From positions 148,998 to 212,997 of the forward strand of contig LYOS01000001.1 in the NCBI GenBank assembly GCA_001766815.1: a stretch of 64,000 nt of DNA, in the 5' to 3' direction. Every line of letters starts with the position of its first letter. The first letter of the stretch is position 1. The notes beneath the pieces were generated by a model. It was given only the letters and a program-made list of their open reading frames with translations. It did no database searches and was not told the origin of the DNA. A program made the position numbers and the translations under genes. Positions 1 to 11,263 of this stretch are shown here, piece by piece. This DNA is from Candidatus Syntropharchaeum caldarium. Lineage in GTDB: Archaea; Halobacteriota; Syntropharchaeia; Syntropharchaeales; Syntropharchaeaceae.

Positions 1-1023
1 CCGTGTGTTGCATACGGAAATGTATATGTGGGTTCATGGAACGGGGGGCACTATTACTGCTTGAATGACTCAACTGGAGAAATAAAATGGCAATTTCCTC
101 CAAAAGGTGAAAAGAAACTGGATCACGCACAATCAACACCAGCAGCACATAACGGAATGGTCTTCTTCGGTGATTTTACAGGCGGACCGAAATCAAAGGT
201 TTTTGCCGTTGATGGACTTACAGGTGAAGAGATATGGAATCAAACAGTTTCGTGGAGTGTCTGCGGCTCCGTTACGATTGCGCACAATAAGGTATACCTC
301 ATGACATATAATTTCTATGGTTCAGGAGAGTTTTATGCACTCAATGAAAATAACGGAAGCATTGTCTGGCAACATACGATTGCAAGGTCCGATTCTACAC
401 CGGCGCATGCGTATGGAAACATCTATGTCTGTGGTGGATGCCCAGGTTATGAGCGGTGTAGAACATACTGTCTGAATGATGCAGACGGAGGAAACGAGAC
501 CTGGAATGTGCCTGATTGGGGGATATGGACATATTCACCGATGGTTGCAGATAAGAAAGTATTTATTGGTAAAGCAGAGGGACCGGGGATGGACAGTATG
601 CTCCCAGCAGGGATGTCTGCTCGTAATGCCTTTACCGGAGAAGAGATATGGCGTTCAGATCTCGGCGGTGGTTCACCCGCGATTGTGCATGGGAGGGTAT
701 ATACCGTGGGGGGTGTTAATGCAACGGGCAGAGTTATCTGTTTCGGCTCTACAAACCAACCAGACCTCGAACTGAGTAATCTCACTACGGTTCCAAAGTC
801 AGATATCTATGTCGGTCAAAATGTTTCAATCAATGTGACACTCAGAAATATTGGCTCTGGTAACGCTTCTGCATTTAACGTTTCTTTACGAGTTAATGGT
901 GAGATAGAAGCGGAAAAAAGAATTGATGATGGACTTAATGTAAACGTTAGCATGCCTGTGAATTTCTCGTGGACTCCAGTAGAAGCTGGGGAGTATCTTA
1001 TCATCGTTGAAGCGGATTCGGAT
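1..1023. repeat. Copy A of an exact ~1.0 kb direct repeat (partner at 6282-7304); may extend upstream of the window
   Basis: Identical at every position compared by eye (1-60, 241-300, 481-540, 781-840, 961-1023 against offset +6281); first mismatch at 1024 vs 7305. Confidence 0.85.
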
Positions 1024-2130
1024 GATGAGATTGCTGAAACCGACGAGCTTAACAATACGTTGAGTGCGACCGTGGACGTGGTTGAAGCAGCAGGACCAAG
1101 TGTTACGGTTGATAGCCGTGATGTATCCCCTGGTGAGACGTTCACGATCAGTATAACCGTCGATCCGCAGGGTGAGGAGATTTACGGAGCACAGTATGAC
1201 CTTTACTTTGATCCAGCAATCTTGCAGGTTGTGAGCCAGACCGCGGGCGACTTCCTGACACAGGACGGTGCAAGCTCAATCGAAGTCGTGAACACGATCA
1301 ACAACACCCTTGGAAAGCTTGAGTACGGTGAGACACGGATGGGAGTGGAGAATGGCGTGACTCGGGCAGGCGTTCTCGCCACGATCGAATTCGAGGCTGT
1401 TGGAACCGGGTCAACCGGTCTCACGCTATCAAACGTGCTCTTAAGCGATCCAAGTGCACATGAGATTGGAGGAGTCGTGCTGAACGATGGAGCGGTCAAC
1501 GTAGCAGGGACGCCACCGCCGCCACCACCAGGTGGTGCGATCGTAACGATCCCTGACGTTGGAGCAACAGGAACGCTCACAGTCCCGATCAGAATCGAGA
1601 ACGTGACAGACGCAGGCGCAATCCATCTGACACTCACCTATGACCCTCGTGTTGTCATCGTATCAACTGCGTGCTGCAACTCAGACTTTGACACACTCTT
1701 TGCAAACATCGAGGATGCAGCAAGAGGATCTATTACCATCATCGCATACCAGACCCAAAACCCAGGTCTGAACGGCAATGTGCTCGTTGCAGACGTGACT
1801 TTCATGGCACTCGGCCCCATCGGATCATCGAGCACCCTTAACCTAGAGGTCACAACACTCACCGACGCAACACCAGAGTGCAACCCGATCCCCTACTCAG
1901 TCAGCAATGGAAGCTTCACGGTATTCTTAAACGGCGACGTGAACGGTGATGGCAGGGTCGATGCTGCAGACTGCATGTACCTTGCAAAACACCTGCTCGG
2001 GGTCTCAGGTTTTGAGACGATCGTTGAGGTTGCAGCAGATGTCAATGGTAACGGCGAGATCGAGGCATCAGACTGCATGTACCTTGCAAAGCATCTTGCA
2101 GGGATTGACGGATTTGAGGAGTTGAAGTAG
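1..2130 (+). CDS. Giant secreted surface protein, paralog 1 (5' end truncated by window edge): PQQ-like beta-propeller repeats, CARDB domain, two cohesin-like domains, PPPPPP linker, C-terminal dockerin
   Basis: Frame 1 is open from position 1 to TAG at 2128-2130. Repeated YxLNxxxGxxxWQ propeller-like motifs, CARDB-like NVSLRVNGE block, cohesin-like blocks (YDLYFDPAILQVV, LTLTYDPRVVIVS), dockerin duplicated loops DVNGDGRVDAADCMYLAKHLLG and DVNGNGEIEASDCMYLAKHLAG. Confidence 0.75.
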   Translation, partial: PCVAYGNVYVGSWNGGHYYCLNDSTGEIKWQFPPKGEKKLDHAQSTPAAHNGMVFFGDFTGGPKSKVFAVDGLTGEEIWNQTVSWSVCGSVTIAHNKVYLMTYNFYGSGEFYALNENNGSIVWQHTIARSDSTPAHAYGNIYVCGGCPGYERCRTYCLNDADGGNETWNVPDWGIWTYSPMVADKKVFIGKAEGPGMDSMLPAGMSARNAFTGEEIWRSDLGGGSPAIVHGRVYTVGGVNATGRVICFGSTNQPDLELSNLTTVPKSDIYVGQNVSINVTLRNIGSGNASAFNVSLRVNGEIEAEKRIDDGLNVNVSMPVNFSWTPVEAGEYLIIVEADSDDEIAETDELNNTLSATVDVVEAAGPSVTVDSRDVSPGETFTISITVDPQGEEIYGAQYDLYFDPAILQVVSQTAGDFLTQDGASSIEVVNTINNTLGKLEYGETRMGVENGVTRAGVLATIEFEAVGTGSTGLTLSNVLLSDPSAHEIGGVVLNDGAVNVAGTPPPPPPGGAIVTIPDVGATGTLTVPIRIENVTDAGAIHLTLTYDPRVVIVSTACCNSDFDTLFANIEDAARGSITIIAYQTQNPGLNGNVLVADVTFMALGPIGSSSTLNLEVTTLTDATPECNPIPYSVSNGSFTVFLNGDVNGDGRVDAADCMYLAKHLLGVSGFETIVEVAADVNGNGEIEASDCMYLAKHLAGIDGFEELK

Positions 2131-2138
2131 AATAAGAA

Positions 2139-5100
2139 ATGGTGAAATGTGTGAGGCGATTGATAGCGGTATTTTTAATCTCGTTATTTATATTCCCGTT
2201 GGTATCTGCAGATCTCAGAAAGGATCTCACAGATAACCTCCCTCTAAGTGTAAGATCTCCTTCTGGTACTGAGACCCTGATCTGCGGTTACCTGTTTGAG
2301 AGGGGATCTACAGGCAGTGTAAGGATCACAAACCTCAACACCAGTTTAAGCTGGGATGCAAGGCTACTTGAGTCAGAGCCAGACTTCTACTACCTCTATC
2401 TCGATGAAATTGAGCTTAAAGCAGGAGATATGCTCAGGCTCAACGCAACCTCAGGTGATGAATCGGTCGTATTAATTCATACCGTAAACCAGAGTGAGAT
2501 CGATGAGCATCTGGTGTGGCTTGATATCATCGAGGATCTTGCGATAACAGAGATCACAATACCAAACAGAATTACAAAAGATATCAACACCACTATCCAC
2601 GCCGTAATTGAGAATATTGGACTGATACCAGTCGTTGTACCCTTCAATATTACATTCAGCGTTGATGGAGAACTCATAACTACTACCTCTTTTACAGAAG
2701 TTCCTTTAAACGCCAGTGAGAACTTTACCGTAGAATTTTATTGGACTCCTCTGGAATCCGGGATACACAACATCACAATCACTGTGGATCCGAATCATGA
2801 AATTATATCAGAGACGAATGAATCGAATAATCGAATGAAGAAAAGCGTGTCTGTTGCTGAACTACCTTCGTTTTATGTGCCACTGGACTTTCCCACGATT
2901 CAAGATGCGGTGGATAATGTAACAATTAACGGAACCACGATTTATGTCGCAAGCGGCACGTATAACGAGAATATAATGATTCAAAAGCAGATCACACTTC
3001 TGGGAGCGGATATGAATGATACAATCATAGACGGAGGTGGGAACGATACATTAAGGCTTTTTGCGAATAATTGTGTCATCAGAGGTTTTTCGATAATTAA
3101 TGGGAGCACAGGTATAAAGATCGAATCCAATGGCAATAAAATCTTTGAAAATTGGATTTATAACAACTCCTGCGGCGTAAATATCACCGGATTAAATAAT
3201 ACCGTTTATCATAATAATCTGAATAATGTTCAGAACGGATTTGATACCGGTAATAGTTCGTGGGACGATGGAAGGGAAGGAAACTACTGGAGCGATTGTA
3301 CCGGCGATGATTTCGATCTCAATGGGATTGTAGACACGCCTTATGAATGCGGGTGGGTAACGGATCGATATCCTTTAGTTTCTCCATATGTACTGCACAG
3401 AGACCCGGCAATCGCGTATCTCACTGTCCCCACATCTATTTATGTGAATGAAACGAATACTATCTTTGTGGGCATTGCCAATTACGGCACTTCAGAAGTG
3501 GCAAGCAATCTCTCACTCAAACTCGGTGGCACTATTCTGAACATGACGATTTCTCTACCATATAAGAGCATAAACGCTGTTTATTTCTGCGTGACTCCGA
3601 ACCAGATGGGGACAATAAACCTAACAGCGGAGATAGAGGCATGCAATGAAGATTCAAATAGAGCAAACAACCGGATGAGCGTGAATGTTACGGTAATTCC
3701 TTCGCCTTTTAAGCGCCTTTACAATTTTGATAACGAAACAACTATGGCGGAATATTATAAATATCAACTTCCTGAAAGCAGAACGAATGCTCTGGATTAC
3801 TTAGCAATGCAGCAGAATTCTGACGGCGGCATCGGTCAGGGTGGCTATTCGACAGATCTGGCTATTATAGCGGTATCATCTGCTGGAGAGAATCCGCAGG
3901 AGTTTGCGAGACTGAATTCGTCGCTTACAGATTATTTAAAAGCGCATCCGCCTCAGCATGACCTGACTTTAATATCTCGCTATGTGCTTGCGATTATCGC
4001 TTCTGGTGAGAATCCGCGTGATTTTGGTGGTAAAAACTATCTTGCGATGATTCAATCATTCTTCGATGGAGAACAGTTTGGAATTGAGAAGAATATCGTG
4101 GATGATGCGTGGGCTGTGCTTGCACTTACCGGAGCAGGATATGGCAATGACACAGAAATTATGCGAACTGAAAGGAATTATATTCTCAGGTGTCAGAATG
4201 AGAGTGATGGCGGATGGCCGTATTTTGAGAATGGAACGAGCTCAATCGATGTAACTGCGATAGCATTAGAAGCTCTGGTTGCTTCTGGTATAGCTGTGGA
4301 TAATAGTTCGATACAGAATGGCACGAAATATTTGGAAAAAAATCTTGTGAAGAATCAATGGGAAGAGGGGATGGGGCAGACAGACCCACTGCCAGAATCC
4401 AATCTGAAAAATTATGCTCATTCAGTCCAGGCAATCGTTGCTGTTGGAGGGAATCCGATAGATGGAAGCTGGGATTATTCGCAGAGTGCAGCTACATACT
4501 ACGGGATTGAAAACCCATACAACCCGCTACTTCTGCTCTTGGGACTCGAAGAGAAGTCGGGCGATTTTGAAGGTGGATTCGCGTTCACATTTAAAGATTC
4601 TTATCCCGAACCTAAATGGACATCAATGGCACTCCCCTCGCTGTTCGCAAAGCCATATCCTTCGATGTGCACGTATAGCCGGGTGCTATCAGACATAAAG
4701 CCCATTCATATAGGGACACGGGCTTGCTACACCAATGTTACAAATATTATCAATGCAACAATCAAGAACAACGGCGGGATATTCAACGTGAGTCTTCTTG
4801 TGGATGGTGCCGAGGTTGACCGCGCGAGAATTGTGGAGACGAATTCAACTGCATTATCGCGGGTGGAATTCAGATGGCTGCCAGAGAAAGAAGGGGAATA
4901 TAACCTCACCGTTGTGGCAGATTCTGAGAATTCAATAGAAGAGAATAATGAGAGCAATAACTGCATCGGCCGCGTGGTCACTGTGACGAAGCCAGACCTG
5001 CACCCCAGGACAGAACTGCCAGCATTCTATGTCAATGTGACAAACAGAATAGAAACAGAAGTTTTAGGATACGGCGAGGGATTCAACGTATCGCTTCTTA

Positions 5101-8039
5101 TAAATGGAAGCGTTGTAGATAAAGCCGAGAATATCAGCTCTTATGGCTTTAATAAAACAACGTTATACTGGAAGCCAAACCAAACGGGTAACTACACTCT
5201 TAGACTCATCGCTGATTCGGAAAACGATGTATTTGAATCCGATGAGAAGAATAACACCATAGAAGAGAATGTCAGTGTAATACTGCCCGACCTATATCCT
5301 CAGAATATAAGCACTATGATACTGTACACCGATACCGAGAACATCATAGATGTCAGCATCAACGGCTCAGCAGAAGGATTTAACGCGACTTTATTTGCAA
5401 ACGGAACGATTGCAGATAAAATCGAGAACATTTCATCTTATAACGTGGCGAATATCAGTTTTTCGTGGAACCCCCTGCTGGCAGGTGTTTACAACCTCAC
5501 AGTGATGGTAGATGCTGATGATGAGATAGAAGAGACGAACGAAACGAACAACAATCTGAGTCGTATTGTAACCGTAGAGAATCGAGAAGCGCCATACATA
5601 AAACTACTCGCTCCGATAGGTGGTGAATGCTGGAGCGGTGTGCAGACGATAAAGTGGAGTGCAACCGACCCGAACGGCGATGAACTAATAATAAACATCA
5701 GCTACAGCCCGGATGCAGGAATAATGTGGCATCCAATTGCAAGCAATCTTGAGAACACAGGCTATTATAATTGGAGCACCGAGTACATGCTGGATGGATA
5801 TGATTATAAGGTAAAAGTAGAAGCATTTGATGGGAATTCTACCTCAGTGGATATCTCAAAAGATGTATTCACAATCTACAACAGGAGATCGTATGAGGGG
5901 GCACCAAGCTTCCATTATAATGCGGGTTTCTCACTCTCGGAAGCGCCGAATACGAATAAAACTGCGTGGATAACCGAAGATATTGGTGCATGCCCTTCCA
6001 CTTCTCTTATTGTTGCCGATGGTAAGGTCTTTGTCTACTGCTATGACAGTGTGAAGGCACTGGACGAATTAAATGGCAGCACAGACCTAAATGGCAGCAC
6101 AAAACCCATCTGGAGCACATCCATAGATAAGGCTGTTTATGGCTCGTGGGCGACTGCGGCATACTACGACGGATCGGTATTCATAGCTTCAGGAAATCAT
6201 GTTTACCGAATTAGTGCTAAAGATGGAAAGATAGAATGGAGGTTCCAATTCCCTGATGGGGGGTGCAGTGTGAATAGTGGTCCGTGTGTTGCATACGGAA
6301 ATGTATATGTGGGTTCATGGAACGGGGGGCACTATTACTGCTTGAATGACTCAACTGGAGAAATAAAATGGCAATTTCCTCCAAAAGGTGAAAAGAAACT
6401 GGATCACGCACAATCAACACCAGCAGCACATAACGGAATGGTCTTCTTCGGTGATTTTACAGGCGGACCGAAATCAAAGGTTTTTGCCGTTGATGGACTT
6501 ACAGGTGAAGAGATATGGAATCAAACAGTTTCGTGGAGTGTCTGCGGCTCCGTTACGATTGCGCACAATAAGGTATACCTCATGACATATAATTTCTATG
6601 GTTCAGGAGAGTTTTATGCACTCAATGAAAATAACGGAAGCATTGTCTGGCAACATACGATTGCAAGGTCCGATTCTACACCGGCGCATGCGTATGGAAA
6701 CATCTATGTCTGTGGTGGATGCCCAGGTTATGAGCGGTGTAGAACATACTGTCTGAATGATGCAGACGGAGGAAACGAGACCTGGAATGTGCCTGATTGG
6801 GGGATATGGACATATTCACCGATGGTTGCAGATAAGAAAGTATTTATTGGTAAAGCAGAGGGACCGGGGATGGACAGTATGCTCCCAGCAGGGATGTCTG
6901 CTCGTAATGCCTTTACCGGAGAAGAGATATGGCGTTCAGATCTCGGCGGTGGTTCACCCGCGATTGTGCATGGGAGGGTATATACCGTGGGGGGTGTTAA
7001 TGCAACGGGCAGAGTTATCTGTTTCGGCTCTACAAACCAACCAGACCTCGAACTGAGTAATCTCACTACGGTTCCAAAGTCAGATATCTATGTCGGTCAA
7101 AATGTTTCAATCAATGTGACACTCAGAAATATTGGCTCTGGTAACGCTTCTGCATTTAACGTTTCTTTACGAGTTAATGGTGAGATAGAAGCGGAAAAAA
7201 GAATTGATGATGGACTTAATGTAAACGTTAGCATGCCTGTGAATTTCTCGTGGACTCCAGTAGAAGCTGGGGAGTATCTTATCATCGTTGAAGCGGATTC
7301 GGATCACGAAATTACCGAGCAGGTTTCAATGCCAGACAATAATAAGGTTAGTAGACCATTAACGGTAAAAGAGTGGCTGGACTTGGCAGTGGAGGATATT
7401 GATTATTATCCAACGGAGGTTCACGTTGGGGATATTGTGAATATAACACCCTCTATTACGGCGGTAAACCTCGAAGGGGAAAGTGTTGGGGTTGAGTTTA
7501 AAGTTGATGATGAAAGTAAAGAGACAAAGAGAGGCGTAGTTAACGGAGAGCAGATAACTGTAAACTTCACATGGAATGCTTCGAGTCCTGGCGGGTATAA
7601 CCTGACGATAGTCGCCGATCCGGGTGGTGGGATAGATGAAGTTAACGAGACGAATAACGAGACGACAATAGTGGTGGAAGTGATGCCAACGCCAACACCA
7701 ACATCCACTCCAACTCCCGGCTTACCCCACGGTTATGGCGGTGGTGGAGGTGGTGGCTCCGGGATATTTGACTGGGGCGAGTTCTTCGGATCGGGTACAG
7801 GCAGTGAGGGCAATGAAACAGGTGAATTTACGATCCCGATAAATGAGACAGAATCTGTGATTGAAGAAGATTCATCGCGTGTGAATGGCTATCCAATGGG
7901 TGAGGAGACCGGAGGAAGTGCGGGCGGTGGAGGAAAGATCTCTTATATCTGGATCCTCATCGTAACCCTGACGCTTGCCCTTGTGATCTATGGTTACTGG
8001 CGAGAGTCGAGGTTTATCGGTAGGAGGAGGAGAAGATGA
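2139..8039 (+). CDS. Giant secreted, membrane-anchored surface protein, paralog 2 (1966 aa): signal peptide, multiple CARDB domains, parallel beta-helix, alpha/alpha-toroid (prenyltransferase-like) region, PQQ-like beta-propeller, C-terminal TP-rich and Gly-rich linker, TM helix, poly-Arg tail
   Basis: Single 5.9 kb ORF. N-terminal MVKCVRRLIAVFLISLFIFPLVSA signal-like segment; beta-helix motifs (TIYVASGTYNENIMIQKQITLLG, NNCVIRGFSIINGS); toroid-like repeats (QQNSDGGIGQGG, CQNESDGGWPYFENG); many NxS/T sequons; C-terminus TPTPTSTPTPG..GGGGGGGSG..ISYIWILIVTLTLALVIYGYWRESRFIGRRRRR. Confidence 0.8.
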   Translation: MVKCVRRLIAVFLISLFIFPLVSADLRKDLTDNLPLSVRSPSGTETLICGYLFERGSTGSVRITNLNTSLSWDARLLESEPDFYYLYLDEIELKAGDMLRLNATSGDESVVLIHTVNQSEIDEHLVWLDIIEDLAITEITIPNRITKDINTTIHAVIENIGLIPVVVPFNITFSVDGELITTTSFTEVPLNASENFTVEFYWTPLESGIHNITITVDPNHEIISETNESNNRMKKSVSVAELPSFYVPLDFPTIQDAVDNVTINGTTIYVASGTYNENIMIQKQITLLGADMNDTIIDGGGNDTLRLFANNCVIRGFSIINGSTGIKIESNGNKIFENWIYNNSCGVNITGLNNTVYHNNLNNVQNGFDTGNSSWDDGREGNYWSDCTGDDFDLNGIVDTPYECGWVTDRYPLVSPYVLHRDPAIAYLTVPTSIYVNETNTIFVGIANYGTSEVASNLSLKLGGTILNMTISLPYKSINAVYFCVTPNQMGTINLTAEIEACNEDSNRANNRMSVNVTVIPSPFKRLYNFDNETTMAEYYKYQLPESRTNALDYLAMQQNSDGGIGQGGYSTDLAIIAVSSAGENPQEFARLNSSLTDYLKAHPPQHDLTLISRYVLAIIASGENPRDFGGKNYLAMIQSFFDGEQFGIEKNIVDDAWAVLALTGAGYGNDTEIMRTERNYILRCQNESDGGWPYFENGTSSIDVTAIALEALVASGIAVDNSSIQNGTKYLEKNLVKNQWEEGMGQTDPLPESNLKNYAHSVQAIVAVGGNPIDGSWDYSQSAATYYGIENPYNPLLLLLGLEEKSGDFEGGFAFTFKDSYPEPKWTSMALPSLFAKPYPSMCTYSRVLSDIKPIHIGTRACYTNVTNIINATIKNNGGIFNVSLLVDGAEVDRARIVETNSTALSRVEFRWLPEKEGEYNLTVVADSENSIEENNESNNCIGRVVTVTKPDLHPRTELPAFYVNVTNRIETEVLGYGEGFNVSLLINGSVVDKAENISSYGFNKTTLYWKPNQTGNYTLRLIADSENDVFESDEKNNTIEENVSVILPDLYPQNISTMILYTDTENIIDVSINGSAEGFNATLFANGTIADKIENISSYNVANISFSWNPLLAGVYNLTVMVDADDEIEETNETNNNLSRIVTVENREAPYIKLLAPIGGECWSGVQTIKWSATDPNGDELIINISYSPDAGIMWHPIASNLENTGYYNWSTEYMLDGYDYKVKVEAFDGNSTSVDISKDVFTIYNRRSYEGAPSFHYNAGFSLSEAPNTNKTAWITEDIGACPSTSLIVADGKVFVYCYDSVKALDELNGSTDLNGSTKPIWSTSIDKAVYGSWATAAYYDGSVFIASGNHVYRISAKDGKIEWRFQFPDGGCSVNSGPCVAYGNVYVGSWNGGHYYCLNDSTGEIKWQFPPKGEKKLDHAQSTPAAHNGMVFFGDFTGGPKSKVFAVDGLTGEEIWNQTVSWSVCGSVTIAHNKVYLMTYNFYGSGEFYALNENNGSIVWQHTIARSDSTPAHAYGNIYVCGGCPGYERCRTYCLNDADGGNETWNVPDWGIWTYSPMVADKKVFIGKAEGPGMDSMLPAGMSARNAFTGEEIWRSDLGGGSPAIVHGRVYTVGGVNATGRVICFGSTNQPDLELSNLTTVPKSDIYVGQNVSINVTLRNIGSGNASAFNVSLRVNGEIEAEKRIDDGLNVNVSMPVNFSWTPVEAGEYLIIVEADSDHEITEQVSMPDNNKVSRPLTVKEWLDLAVEDIDYYPTEVHVGDIVNITPSITAVNLEGESVGVEFKVDDESKETKRGVVNGEQITVNFTWNASSPGGYNLTIVADPGGGIDEVNETNNETTIVVEVMPTPTPTSTPTPGLPHGYGGGGGGGSGIFDWGEFFGSGTGSEGNETGEFTIPINETESVIEEDSSRVNGYPMGEETGGSAGGGGKISYIWILIVTLTLALVIYGYWRESRFIGRRRRR
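6282..7304. repeat. Copy B of the exact ~1.0 kb direct repeat (partner at 1-1023), inside giant protein paralog 2
   Basis: See copy A; encodes the same PQQ-propeller/CARDB block in both paralogs. Confidence 0.85.
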
Positions 8040-8074
8040 TGAGTATCGACAGGGAAGAGAACACCTGTAGCTCA

Positions 8075-8266
8075 TCAGTAAGCCTCGTCGTGATGAACGA
8101 GCCTGTCGAAGATGAGAACCCTGAGATTCTTGAAACGATGGATCATCTCCTCGTCACAGGCAGAAATCTGGTTTATCTTCATTTGAACTCTTCTAAAAAA
8201 TGCCATGTCTTTCTTTTTGATCTTTATCATCGTTCGTTTGAGTTCGTCGGAGATGCAGATCTTCAT
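8075..8266 (-). CDS. Small hypothetical protein, possible ribbon-helix-helix-like DNA-binding protein
   Basis: 63 aa ORF; N-terminal KICISDELKRTM resembles the strand-helix start of RHH proteins and parallels the adjacent upstream ORF; the + strand ORF across this region is Ser-rich low complexity. Confidence 0.3.
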   Translation of the reverse strand: MKICISDELKRTMIKIKKKDMAFFRRVQMKINQISACDEEMIHRFKNLRVLIFDRLVHHDEAY

Positions 8267-8571
8267 AATTCATTGCACCATTTATCGAACTCTTCCAGGC
8301 TCATGGGCTTTCTCTTACCGGATTCAAGTTCTTTCAATACCTCCTCTGTAGATCTAACGACTTCCTTAGCCAGAGAATCTTTGACCTCCTTCTCATCATC
8401 CGGTATTTCAGATATTTCAGCAATTTTCCTTCCCATCTCAAGTTCTTCTATATCATGTAATCTTTCAGAGATAGCTTTTAATGCTACTGCTGGCCAATCA
8501 ACCCAATCTATTCTGGACATTCGCTCCTTCAGCTTGTCAGGTATCACAACCTTTATCTTTGCCATTCCCAT
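8263..8571 (-). CDS. Small hypothetical protein, ribbon-helix-helix-like (putative transcriptional regulator)
   Basis: 102 aa charged helical protein; N-terminal KIKVVIPDKLKERMSRI resembles the RHH beta-strand/helix motif; 4-nt overlap with the next small ORF; divergent from the ExbB-like gene. Confidence 0.4.
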   Translation of the reverse strand: MGMAKIKVVIPDKLKERMSRIDWVDWPAVALKAISERLHDIEELEMGRKIAEISEIPDDEKEVKDSLAKEVVRSTEEVLKELESGKRKPMSLEEFDKWCNEL

Positions 8572-8594
8572 CGCCTATGGCTATATCGGTCATT

Positions 8595-8608
8595 CGTTTA
8601 TAAATAGC
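8595..8608. promoter_or_regulatory. TATA-like element in the divergent intergenic region between the RHH-like gene and the ExbB-like gene
   Basis: cgtttataaatagc; an AAGGAGG Shine-Dalgarno-like motif follows at 8648-8654, a few nt before the ATG at 8659. Confidence 0.3.
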
Positions 8609-8658
8609 TTCTCACAGATGGAGAACTCAACGTTTACTGTTAAACAAAGGAGGAAAAT

Positions 8659-9255
8659 ATGATAGATATATTTGCAACGCTCCAGTCATCGATATACTAC
8701 ATCTCAACATACCTTCTGTATCCAGTGATCATTGCACTGCTTATCTGTGTTGGCTTCATCCTCGTTGACACAGGGTCTTTTCTCTACGAGATATACAGAA
8801 GAAAGAGGTTACACTTTGAGTTTGAGGATGAAGTTATCTCAGGCAGGTTTGTTGCGCTATTCATGAAAGAGCTTGAGCACATGGATCATGAAGATAGATA
8901 CTTTGATCTCAAGCTCCAGAAGCTCCTGAATGATATGGAGTATCTCATATCAAAGCGGCTTGAGCTGACGAAGCTCATATCAAGGATTGGTCCCATGTTC
9001 GGTCTTATGGGAACTTTAATCCCGATGGGACCTGCTTTGATAGGGCTTACTCACGGTGACATCGAGACCCTTGCAGATAACCTCATCATCGCATTCGGGA
9101 CAACAGTCGTGGGGCTTCTGGTCGGTGCGGTATCTTACTCGATCGCGATGGTCAGAACGCGCTGGTATGATCAGGAGATGGATGATATGGAGTTTGTATG
9201 TGAGATTGTGACGGGAGGTAGTCAGGATGAAATACATGAAGAAGAGAAGAGGTAA
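8659..9255 (+). CDS. MotA/TolQ/ExbB family proton-channel protein
   Basis: Signature region IGPMFGLMGTLIPMGPALIGLTHGDIETLADNLIIAFGTTVVGLLVGAVSYSIAMVRTRW matches the TolQ/ExbB conserved core; N-terminal TM helix. Confidence 0.7.
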   Translation: MIDIFATLQSSIYYISTYLLYPVIIALLICVGFILVDTGSFLYEIYRRKRLHFEFEDEVISGRFVALFMKELEHMDHEDRYFDLKLQKLLNDMEYLISKRLELTKLISRIGPMFGLMGTLIPMGPALIGLTHGDIETLADNLIIAFGTTVVGLLVGAVSYSIAMVRTRWYDQEMDDMEFVCEIVTGGSQDEIHEEEKR

Positions 9256-9571
9256 GAAGAAGCGATCCTTTGAGGAGGATCCGATGAGTGGTGTTGCAAA
9301 TCTATTCGATGTTGCGATGGTCTTTGCGGTTGCGCTTCTGATAGCGCTTGTATCTTCCTACCATATTCAGGAGCTTCTTGATCCGACCAGGGATATCACA
9401 ATCGTCAAGAACCCTGGACAGCCTGATATGCAGGTCATCGTGAAGGAGGGGAAGGAGATAAAGACGCTGAATGTGACAGAGGAGATGAGTGAAGTTGAGA
9501 TTGCAGGAACTGTTGGAACGATCTACAGGACACCGGATGGTGGAATGGTATATGTGCCTGAGGGTGGATGA
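9227..9571 (+). CDS. ExbD/TolR-like single-pass membrane protein (DUF2149-like partner of archaeal MotA/ExbB homologs)
   Basis: Basic N-terminus then TM helix ANLFDVAMVFAVALLIALV with an embedded Asp, as in ExbD/TolR/MotB; overlaps the ExbB-like gene (start may be 9236). Confidence 0.5.
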   Translation: MKYMKKRRGKKKRSFEEDPMSGVANLFDVAMVFAVALLIALVSSYHIQELLDPTRDITIVKNPGQPDMQVIVKEGKEIKTLNVTEEMSEVEIAGTVGTIYRTPDGGMVYVPEGG

Positions 9572-9754
9572 GATGAGATCATTATCCATAAAAATAAATT
9601 AAAAAAGTTCAAAATGTAGAATCCGCGACTGACAGATTTTCAAAAGCTTAAGGGTGTGGTAAGGAATAAGAGGTAAAAGATTGGCAGAAACAGCCTGGAA
9701 AAACATATATACATTGACCGAGTACTGATGTTTTATTAATGAGAAGGTTACTTT

Positions 9755-11263
9755 ATGAAAGGGGGATTATCCATCCTTGCAGAGAAAAACAATGCAAATG
9801 GTTTAGAGCCTGTACAGAAGACGAAAGAAACGGGTAAACAGGCATATCTGATACTTGGGTGTGGAGCGATAGGACTTGCGACAGCGAAAGGTTTAAAAAA
9901 GCAAGATTATACAGTTCTGATCGTTGATATAAATGAAAAGGTTGTTGAGAGCCTTAGAGAGCAAAATATGGACGCCTGTCTGGGCGATATGAGCGATCCC
10001 AAATTTTTAGAGACAGTACTTGCTAATAAGCAGTTCAATGCAATCCTGATTCTTGGAGATAATTCTGCATCAAATCAGCAGGCGCTCAGAACAATCAAAA
10101 AAATCACTCCAGAGACGTACGTCGTTGTACGTGCAATCGATCCTGTTGAGCAAGAAGATCTGAAGGAACTGGGTGTGGATGCACTGGTTCTACCTGCTGA
10201 GATTGTTGCAAAACATATCATCAGAACGCTTGAAGGTGTTGCACTCTCAAAGCGTACAGATAAACTCATAAAATTGCTGGCTGGTATGAAAGGTAGCAAG
10301 CTTGGCATCGTTCTTCACGACAGTCCTGATCCTGATGCGATCGCAAGTGGACTTGCGCTCAAGTATATCGCAGAAACGACAGGTACCGATGCAGAGATCC
10401 TTTATCATGGGGAAGTCGGGCACCAGGTCAATCGCGCGTTTGTGAACCTCCTCAATATAAATATGCGGCGTATCGAGGAGGTTGACCTTGATGAGTTTGC
10501 AGGCTTTGCACTTGTTGACACATCACCCGGTGCAAATAACTCACTTCCACCAGAGATCGAACCCGACATCATCATAGACCATCACCCACCCATGAAAACC
10601 GAGTTTTCATCCTATTATGTCGATGTGCGTCCAGGAACTGGATCCTGTTCCACAATTCTTACAAAATATCTTCAGCAACTGGAACTACCAATCGAGAAGG
10701 AACTTGCAACAGCTCTGATTCATGGAATAAGAACTGATACACAGGAATTTAAGCGAAACACCAGCCCCGCAGATCTCACCGCAGCAGCGTTCCTTTACCC
10801 ACTCGTGGATCACACACTACTTGGTCAGATTGAGACACCTCCGATGTCCACCGAGACGCTGGACGTGCTTGGGGAGGCGATAAGGAGACGAACGGTGAAG
10901 GGGAGTTATCTCGTCTCAAACGTCGGTTTTATCATGGATCGAGATGCACTGGTACAGGCAGCAGATTATCTTCTCAACCTTGAGGGAATATCCACCGTAC
11001 TTGTATTTGGGCTCAGTGAAGATAAAATTCACATAACCGGGCGTAACAAAGATGTCCGGATAAATATAGGGGCCGTTCTTCAGGAGGCGTTTGGTGATAT
11101 CGGTACTGCTGGTGGACATTCAACAGCAGGGGCTGCACAGATACCACTGGGTGTATTCAGCGGTATGAAGGATAAAGAAAGCCTGCTGAAGCTGGTTGGT
11201 GACGCGGTTACCATGCGTTTCTTCTCAAAGATCGGGATCGAAAACGGCGATAAAACAACCTGA
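9755..11263 (+). CDS. DHH-family phosphoesterase with N-terminal TrkA-N (NAD-binding) domain
   Basis: Rossmann motif LILGCGAIGLATAKGL; DHH motifs (DSPDPDAIASG, IIIDHHPP) and DHHA1-like C-terminus (GGHSTAGAAQ). Confidence 0.7.
   Translation: MKGGLSILAEKNNANGLEPVQKTKETGKQAYLILGCGAIGLATAKGLKKQDYTVLIVDINEKVVESLREQNMDACLGDMSDPKFLETVLANKQFNAILILGDNSASNQQALRTIKKITPETYVVVRAIDPVEQEDLKELGVDALVLPAEIVAKHIIRTLEGVALSKRTDKLIKLLAGMKGSKLGIVLHDSPDPDAIASGLALKYIAETTGTDAEILYHGEVGHQVNRAFVNLLNINMRRIEEVDLDEFAGFALVDTSPGANNSLPPEIEPDIIIDHHPPMKTEFSSYYVDVRPGTGSCSTILTKYLQQLELPIEKELATALIHGIRTDTQEFKRNTSPADLTAAAFLYPLVDHTLLGQIETPPMSTETLDVLGEAIRRRTVKGSYLVSNVGFIMDRDALVQAADYLLNLEGISTVLVFGLSEDKIHITGRNKDVRINIGAVLQEAFGDIGTAGGHSTAGAAQIPLGVFSGMKDKESLLKLVGDAVTMRFFSKIGIENGDKTT

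Follow-up and report, generated by a model that had tools for sequence, protein, structure and literature searches.

The window described here is a stretch of 64,000 nucleotides (nt) from the butane-oxidising archaeon Candidatus Syntropharchaeum caldarium (S. caldarius; contig LYOS01000001.1, positions 148,998 to 212,997 of the forward strand), and our subject is a pair of overlapping genes in it that encode an ExbB/TolQ-like channel protein of 198 amino acids (aa) and a DUF2149 protein of 114 aa. The pair lies downstream of two giant surface-protein genes, and in the clade to which it belongs the gene directly upstream almost always encodes an anchored giant. On balance we favour the view that the two small proteins form an ion-driven motor dedicated to the anchored giant encoded upstream, which would make the three proteins a relay of the Ton/Tol kind working without an outer membrane. 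The coordinates of the features are given in Table 1.

The 198-aa protein (OFV68506) is an ExbB/TolQ homologue by sequence profile and by fold. Pfam matches residues 66-178 to PF01618 (MotA_ExbB) with an E value of 4e-12 (46.4 bits, cutoff 22.9), bearing out the MotA/TolQ/ExbB signature that had been noticed in an earlier sequence-only reading of this DNA, and the same family is present in 120 of 120 listed relatives. A profile built from 32 relatives finds the solved structures of E. coli ExbB (5sv0, E 2.2e-5) and TolQ (E 2.3e-4), with matches that span transmembrane (TM) helices TM1 to TM3. The AlphaFold monomer model, made with an alignment of 72 relatives, has a predicted local distance difference test score (pLDDT) of 85.6 and long helices at residues 4-54, 82-131 and 135-184. 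When this model was compared with the PDB using Foldseek, ranks 1-34 were all TolQ or ExbB chains (probability almost all 0.99-1.00; TM-scores 0.36-0.55); PomA, ZorA and MotA were weaker fold matches ranked below these, ZorA at rank 49. Residues G115-T119, A145, F146, T149, V150 and G152 are invariant in both alignments of ExbB-like proteins, and T148 and L153 are either invariant or conserved to at least 90%.

The GenBank name of OFV68506, 'flagellar motor protein MotA', is misleading. The protein shares a superfamily with the MotA/MotB stator, but we rejected a flagellar stator: Pfam does not find the OmpA-like peptidoglycan-binding domain of the stator partner here, the cytoplasmic loop of the ExbB-like protein is short (~70 aa) and the best structural matches are TolQ and ExbB. 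The Zorya proteins ZorA and ZorB were also rejected. The sequence-only reading had considered the pair too small for them, and the exclusion holds because neither protein matches any PADLOC model (E <= 0.01); at 198 aa the channel protein has no tail.

The open reading frame (ORF) of the partner overlaps that of the ExbB-like protein by 29 nt. Its product matches PF09919 (DUF2149) over the full profile (positions 1-92 of 92; E 2.6e-30, 105.1 bits, cutoff 27.1), and both members of the pair are therefore significant matches above the curated thresholds of their families. The protein has a strongly basic, cytoplasmic N-terminus and, by prediction, a single TM helix and a small five-stranded all-beta extracellular domain. 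Asp28, which sits near the cytoplasmic end of the helix, is invariant in 96 aligned DUF2149 relatives. Using hhalign, Asp28 aligns to D25 of ExbD and D23 of TolR, in matches to the E. coli proteins that are not significant (E 0.11 and 0.059, respectively) and cover 11-19 TM residues only. DUF2149 is the sole Pfam family found at E <= 0.1, ExbD not being among the matches, and a PDB profile search gave no match below E 0.7. Judged by its sequence, the protein is not a member of the ExbD family and its likeness is limited to the Asp-bearing TM helix. The single helix and its Asp, on which an ExbD/TolR/MotB-like partner had been proposed, are thus present, but the family is DUF2149. Because the profile and fold matches cover the A subunit only, we treat the A subunit as a member of the family and the B-like subunit as a protein that would only work like one. 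Neither the DUF2149 protein of the window nor a second S. caldarius paralogue (P0093) was on record in an exact-sequence look-up.

Pfam confirms that the two large genes upstream of the pair, as supposed from the sequence, both encode giant surface proteins of the CARDB/PQQ-propeller type. The first, OFV68503, is a secreted protein (PQQ_2, CARDB, Cohesin and Dockerin_1) that ends with two cohesins and a dockerin and has no membrane anchor. The second, OFV68504, carries a signal peptide and is anchored by a C-terminal TM helix; its other parts are seven CARDB domains, segments of the beta-helix and alpha/alpha-toroid types and a PQQ beta-propeller. Its composition is acidic and it contains 80 N-x-S/T sequons. 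Along its whole length it shows homology (31-34% identity) to an Argoarchaeum giant that directly precedes the pair of that organism. The two tandem giants are 99% identical over their first 1745 aa, or about 5.2 kb of DNA (within the window, positions 1-1032 repeat 6282-7313 at 99.7%), and differ only at the C-terminus, where OFV68503 has the cohesins and dockerin and OFV68504 has a CARDB domain and the membrane-anchor module. Either the gene was duplicated very recently and the tails were swapped, or the metagenome-assembled genome (MAG) is misassembled here. Two other identities for the giant were rejected: a multihaem electron conduit, as OFV68504 has no CxxCH motif, and an alpha-2-macroglobulin-like thioester protein, as there is no C-x-E-Q motif.

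The membrane-anchor module of OFV68504 occupies residues 1901-1966. An alignment of 19 giants gives a consensus of ~65 aa in which an N-x-S/T sequon is followed by G-Y-P-[MF]-G (or a variant of it), a run of Gly residues and a TM helix, with G-[YFIM]-x-x-E at the cytoplasmic end of the helix and then a basic tail. The module is common to these giants even where the remaining protein is unrelated. Its occurrence away from pairs was assessed in the fetched loci and the 64-kb window: across all ORFs of the fetched loci, strong matches to a hidden Markov model (HMM) of the module are confined to giants adjacent to a pair, and in the window OFV68504 alone matches. The giants of S. caldarius and S. 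butanivorans show 66% identity in their last 154 aa and only weak CARDB-repeat similarity elsewhere. This 154-aa stretch is contiguous with the ExbB-like/DUF2149 pair, which is ~80% identical between the two species. The tail is conserved alongside the pair, and therefore the conserved unit is the module, the ExbB-like protein and the DUF2149 protein, with passengers that are exchangeable. The last 130 aa of the giant had no match in a set of 5.8 billion proteins, in which its own protein was also not matched, and the last 130 aa of four giants matched no sorting-signal model at E <= 1 (NCBIfam and Pfam, including PGF-CTERM).

In order to follow the linkage beyond the window, we surveyed 80 loci from species-representative genomes, 80 from metagenomes and a few found by exact look-up; ORFs were called, neighbours were clustered and cluster representatives were annotated with Pfam. 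Genomes of Methanosarcina, Methanolobus and Methanococcoides are represented in this set. The ExbB-like gene is 5' of the DUF2149 gene wherever the contig allows. A neighbour-joining tree made on the concatenated ExbB-like and DUF2149 sequences (126 distinct pairs, 113 long enough) splits into two large groups of 78 and 33 pairs. The window's pair belongs to the latter, which is monophyletic and includes Syntrophoarchaeum, GoM-Arc1/Argoarchaeum, ANME-2c/Methanogaster and ANME-1/Methanophagales. Thirty loci of this clade were testable, having at least 800 nt upstream. In 29 of these, the same-strand gene directly upstream encodes a protein with a C-terminal TM helix plus CARDB and/or the C-terminal module, and in the remaining one there is an unclassified anchored protein of 433 aa. 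The upstream proteins have a signal peptide wherever the N-terminus is present, and in 16 loci of the clade there is a 4-nt overlap between the upstream stop codon and the start of the ExbB-like gene. The upstream architectures are mutually unrelated: CARDB with an alpha/alpha-toroid and PQQ propeller (the window type), CARDB with DUF3344, and CARDB with a beta-helix/NosD. One MAG has at least four pairs, each next to a different anchored protein (L004, L021 with two, and L080), and exact look-ups gave further giant-linked examples with Pfam-labelled genes. The linkage of the pair to surface-protein genes, which had been suggested from the window alone, is therefore conserved.

The sister clade of 78 pairs has another arrangement, the cassette DUF2162-ExbB-DUF2149-CobN/Mg-chelatase, which is an hmuSTUV-like unit. 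Its CobN-like partners also carry signal peptides and are anchored by a C-terminal TM helix. In a Methanolobus subgroup an S-layer-domain (PF07752) protein upstream replaces DUF2162. This cassette dominates the wider family, and the pair in the window could be a tetrapyrrole or metal module of the same Hmu type, or a free-standing channel, that lies near the giant incidentally and is perhaps decaying after an insertion. Inserted genes do separate the pair from the giant in the window, and there is no conserved synteny downstream, not even in comparison with a relative that has a 98%-identical pair. However, the window's clade is separate and has no locus with a DUF2162 or CobN neighbour; neither gene is beside the window pair or among the Pfam-scanned ORFs between 1 and 34 kb. 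Additionally, the clade's pairs are nearly always preceded by an anchored giant with overlapping genes, both ORFs in the window are intact with all invariant residues kept and a strong coding signal, and a TATA-like box and a ribosome-binding site (RBS) precede the ExbB-like gene. As synteny holds across the clade, we consider an incidental adjacency very improbable.

Other arrangements were seen at individual loci. In a beta-helix/CARDB subgroup (L021, L022, L025, L013 and L097), the DUF2149 gene is followed, with overlapping or abutting genes, by one for a second anchored protein of ~632 aa. This protein carries a signal peptide, DUF11/TRAP_beta-like domains and a C-terminal TM helix that ends in LIGRF, so that the motor has an anchored protein on either side. 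The ExbB-like ORFs of L076, L078 and L080 are 452-487 aa, about twice the usual length, which may partly reflect longest-ORF start calls; L078 and L080 lie outside the two main clades in the tree, and their pairs are followed by an anchored protein of ~550 aa. In a subgroup of the CobN/DUF2162-type clade (L013, L025 and L062) there is a gene for a PEMT/ICMT-like membrane methyltransferase of 150-155 aa between DUF2162 and the ExbB-like gene, and the DUF2162 protein is ~400 aa in comparison with the usual ~225. Finally, a Methanospirareceae contig has a DUF2149 gene (L083:1605-1997) with no ExbB-like gene called upstream, where there is instead a 143-aa ORF with a faint PAPS_reduct match; it is possible that this DUF2149 gene is an orphan or decayed copy.

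The same adjacency data also fit a role in biogenesis, in which the motor helps to export, insert, glycosylate, position or anchor the giants, or tethers the membrane to the surface layer like Tol-Pal. The partner proteins are all large, exported and C-terminally anchored, one subgroup is partnered with the S-layer-domain protein, and the N-x-S/T sequon of the conserved module is close to the membrane. However, archaea export and anchor many giants without such pairs, an example being the dockerin-ended paralogue directly upstream in the window. The other partners in the family are CobN-like enzymes, the relatives of which need energy for catalysis and not for export, and a role in biogenesis would leave unexplained the binding-protein and FecCD genes that recur near the pairs. 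We therefore regard this explanation as unlikely.

By analogy with GldLM and AglRQS, the motor might instead drag or rotate the giant for surface motility or for contacts with syntrophic bacteria. The giants are adhesin-like (CARDB, propeller, beta-helix and cohesin/dockerin neighbours) and the clade is found mainly in consortium-forming alkane and methane oxidisers, although the taxon sample is biased towards the relatives of the query. No cytoskeletal or track components were seen in the conserved neighbourhood, and the chelatase-like partners in the sister clade and the binding-protein/ABC (ATP-binding cassette) genes at several loci point to uptake chemistry. We give a motor that moves an adhesin little credence.

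If the pair is a motor dedicated to the anchored giant, as we favour, the ExbB-like subunit would form the outer ring and the DUF2149 protein would take the role of ExbD or TolR, presumably with a 5:2 stoichiometry and with Asp28 in the TM helix as the proton-carrying residue. The giant would be exported and held in the membrane by its C-terminal module, and this module would dock on the motor as the TonB or TolA helix docks on ExbB or TolQ. In this way proton flow would power mechanical work on an extracellular protein, in a place that has no ATP. More speculatively, the most likely use of this work would be to capture or release chelates in short supply, for example corrinoids or other metal complexes, which would be handed to a BtuF-like binding protein and on to an ABC importer. 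The idea of a proton-motive-force-coupled module tied to the cell surface had been put forward in the sequence-only reading, and the significant HMM matches and the conserved linkage support it.

The suggestion of uptake comes from the genes near the pairs. There is a Peripla_BP_2, FecCD or Cbi/Cob gene within 10 kb in 12 of 25 window-clade loci in comparison with 8 of 60 sister-clade loci (loci of at least 8 kb). At several window-clade loci there follow a gene for a Peripla_BP_2 binding protein of the BtuF/FecB type, which often has a PGF-CTERM anchor, and genes for FecCD permeases. The gene order at L168 is giant-ExbB-DUF2149-Peripla_BP_2-...-FecCD-CbiB-...-CbiZ-CobS, CobQ adjoins the pair in Argoarchaeum, and CbiD and CbiM are nearby in L082, a GoM-Arc1-related metagenome contig. 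In a close Syntrophoarchaeum relative there is a short Peripla_BP_2 gene immediately 3' of the DUF2149 gene. Taken together, the neighbours suggest chelate or corrinoid uptake, with counts that are phylogenetically redundant.

Several observations weigh against a dedicated motor and the use proposed for it. Sequence and fold searches gave no link between the outer domain of the DUF2149 protein and ExbD, TolR or MotB, and the model of this protein is only moderately confident (pLDDT 67). No clade-specific partner-interface residues were found on ExbB or DUF2149, where there are a few conservative changes only. The window-clade loci are phylogenetically related, so that the counts overstate the number of independent events, and in the window itself the adjacency of giant and pair is interrupted by the insertion. 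The contact between pair and giant is proposed from gene context, and the genes could be adjacent because they are co-regulated or because the motor acts in biogenesis, and not because of a mechanical coupling. The CobN-type partners of the other clade carry a juxtamembrane motif similar to that of the giants, V-E-G-Y-E-M (with G-Y-x-M in common), and then G-F-[RWMKV]-[RK] after the helix; the S-layer-type partner has a sub-threshold PGF_CTERM match. However, the module HMM reaches only E 0.02-0.1 against the CobN-type C-termini, which is not significant, and we therefore do not claim homology between these and the C-termini of the giants. Finally, as no binding-protein, FecCD or corrinoid genes were found within the 64-kb window, the case for uptake is drawn entirely from other genomes.

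Table 1. Features of the window around the ExbB-like/DUF2149 pair (positions are those of the window)
Feature	Positions	Strand	Remarks
Upstream giant gene, 3' part (OFV68503, 2090 aa)	1-2130	+	Runs past window start
Downstream giant surface protein, 1966 aa (OFV68504)	2139-8039	+	Proposed motor partner
C-terminal module of OFV68504 (aa 1901-1966), proposed coupling element	7839-8036	+	Alignment of 19 giants
N-E-T sequon of module	7839-7856	+	
GYPMG of module	7887-7901	+	Followed by Gly run
TM helix of module	7938-8000	+	
GYWRE of module	7992-8006	+	Followed by basic tail
Lineage-specific insertion, ~640 bp	8016-8658	.	Splits giant gene from ExbB-like gene
208-aa ORF annotated in GenBank (SCAL_000181)	8036-8662	+	Codon usage looks non-coding
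63-aa small gene	8075-8266	-	Overlaps 102-aa gene by 4 nt
102-aa small gene, possible VapB/RHH-type (ribbon-helix-helix) antitoxin	8263-8571	-	Within insertion
TATA-box-like element TTTATAAATA	8597-8606	+	Archaeal type, 53 nt upstream of ExbB-like start codon
GGAGG, candidate RBS	8649-8653	+	Precedes ExbB-like gene
ExbB/TolQ-like proton-channel subunit, 198 aa (OFV68506)	8659-9255	+	Three TM helices
GLMGT motif (TM2) of ExbB-like protein	9001-9015	+	aa 115-119
AFGTTVVGL motif (TM3) of ExbB-like protein	9091-9117	+	aa 145-153
DUF2149 protein, 114 aa, proposed B subunit	9227-9571	+	SCAL_000183
TM helix of DUF2149 protein, about aa 19-44	9293-9361	+	Predicted
Asp28 codon of DUF2149 protein	9308-9310	+	Inside TM helix

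The sequence between the giant and the pair is a lineage-specific insertion. In a blastn comparison with S. butanivorans homology stops at 8015 and restarts at 8660, and in that species the stop codon of the giant abuts the ExbB start. A divergent pair of small RHH-like genes had been read in this gap. There are indeed two minus-strand ORFs, but they are not part of the conserved module and the RHH link amounts to a sub-threshold VapB-like match of the 102-aa ORF (NCBIfam NF050799, E 2.7e-6, 27.8 bits, below the cutoff of 60). The 63-aa ORF has no match in Pfam, NCBIfam, PADLOC or the PDB and could be a short or truncated toxin; PDB searches were uninformative for both ORFs. Codon-usage scores per codon are +0.20 for the 102-aa ORF, +0.14 for the 63-aa ORF and -0.06 for the antisense 208-aa ORF. 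As codon usage favours both minus-strand ORFs, the annotation of SCAL_000181 is probably on the wrong strand. The TATA-box-like element TTTATAAATA and the GGAGG may be a replacement promoter and RBS acquired after the insertion, with which the ExbB-like gene could be transcribed on its own. On either side of the insertion are ATGATG (8036-8041), which overlaps the giant's stop codon, and ATGATA (8659-8664), the present ExbB-like start; the two could have arisen at insertion, when the start site that originally overlapped was copied in a short duplication.

No conservation is seen among the genes 3' of the pair, which are housekeeping genes or otherwise unrelated. DNA similarity to the close Syntrophoarchaeum relative L001 (97.7% over the pair) ends exactly at the stop codon of the DUF2149 gene. 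In L001, and in a second contig, L164, whose ExbB-like protein is 98% identical, the pair is followed by a short Peripla_BP_2 gene and then other genes, and both contigs end just upstream of the ExbB-like gene. The module is either at a rearrangement point or at an assembly break (window positions 9567-9760; L001 and L164). The next gene in the window (9755-11263, plus strand, 502 aa) is named 'potassium transporter TrkA' in GenBank; it is a fusion of a TrkA_N (RCK/NAD-binding) domain with DHH and DHHA1 phosphoesterase domains and has no transporter domain.

Motors of the ExbB/TolQ/MotA type are understood to supply energy in diderm bacteria at sites that lack ATP, namely the outer membrane, the flagellum and the gliding and secretion machines. 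The archaellum is ATP-driven and, to our knowledge, archaea have neither an outer membrane nor a bacterial-type flagellum. The gliding bacteria provide MotA/ExbB-type motors that act on large surface proteins and not on a flagellum (GldLM/PorLM and AglRQS), but these have other B subunits with long periplasmic extensions, a diderm envelope and other conserved partners. The unit described here resembles ExbB-ExbD-TonB and TolQ-TolR-TolA in having a homologous A subunit, a one-helix Asp-bearing partner and a third single-TM protein encoded alongside. In solved complexes the TonB and TolA helices bind the ExbBD or TolQR core (PMC12215075). In contrast with ExbBD and TolQR, the B subunit is not ExbD or TolR by sequence, and fold searches with its predicted outer domain gave no link to either. 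The third protein, unlike TonB and TolA, is C-terminally anchored (type I topology), ~2000 aa long and would itself be the extracellular effector, and there is no outer membrane or receptor to energise. No TonB-like protein or TonB-dependent receptor was among the Pfam matches of the long ORFs scanned (1-34 kb).

The closest known relatives are HmuU and HmuV of the Bacteroidota hmuYRSTUV operon, which belong to the same Pfam families (MotA_ExbB and DUF2149) in the same gene order and are preceded by HmuS, a CobN-like dechelatase, and HmuT, a membrane protein. HmuUV have been drawn as energising the outer-membrane receptor HmuR (PMC12583661); elsewhere HmuU and HmuV are called uncharacterised and HmuV is said to have no homology to any known family (PMC13227078). 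The archaeal sister clade mirrors this cassette, with a CobN-like protein as the counterpart of HmuS and a DUF2162 membrane protein that we liken to HmuT by position. The window's clade differs in that there is no CobN-like or DUF2162 neighbour, TonB-dependent receptor, HmuY or outer membrane, and in that the pair is partnered with a giant CARDB/propeller protein, which has a C-terminal module of its own. Since the Pfam families are shared with HmuU/HmuV and arCOG03208 (DUF2149; COG4744) is already annotated 'linked to TolQ', the ExbB/DUF2149 combination is not an unseen gene pair, and the suggestion of an undescribed system does not apply to the pair itself. It does appear to apply to the linkage with giants. 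In the freely accessible literature we found nothing that links archaeal ExbB/DUF2149 with surface proteins, CobN or these locus tags, and the coupling of the pair to giant surface proteins via a dedicated C-terminal module appears to be undescribed.

We offer a broader proposal more tentatively. The system may be an archaeal counterpart of Ton and Tol that is independent of an outer membrane, in which an ExbB-like/DUF2149 proton motor directly drives an anchored giant via a juxtamembrane/TM docking module, and the family may have diversified by passenger swapping while motor and docking module were kept together. The passengers exchanged would be CARDB/propeller giants, beta-helix giants, S-layer-domain proteins and CobN-like chelatases, a list that is put forward with the same reserve. 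By analogy, the motor of the CobN-linked cassettes, including the bacterial Hmu system, may serve an extracytoplasmic chelatase-like enzyme.

What the analysis adds is a conserved three-part unit of anchored giant, ExbB-like protein and DUF2149 protein in consortial methane-, ethane- and butane-oxidising archaea. It gives a testable hypothesis for the role of archaeal ExbB homologues and puts forward a docking module and a new B-subunit family as candidates; if the proposal is true, DUF2149 is a new class of stator B subunit. It would also follow that bacterial HmuUV probably energises HmuS/HmuT at the inner membrane and not, as drawn, an outer-membrane receptor. This bears on the role of HmuU and HmuV in gut and oral Bacteroidota, as the same cassette occurs in organisms that lack TonB-dependent receptors. 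Should the connection with BtuF-like, FecCD and corrinoid-salvage genes prove correct, it would point to an energy-dependent route by which cobamides or metal chelates are acquired, and such a route would serve organisms whose metabolism depends heavily on those cofactors.

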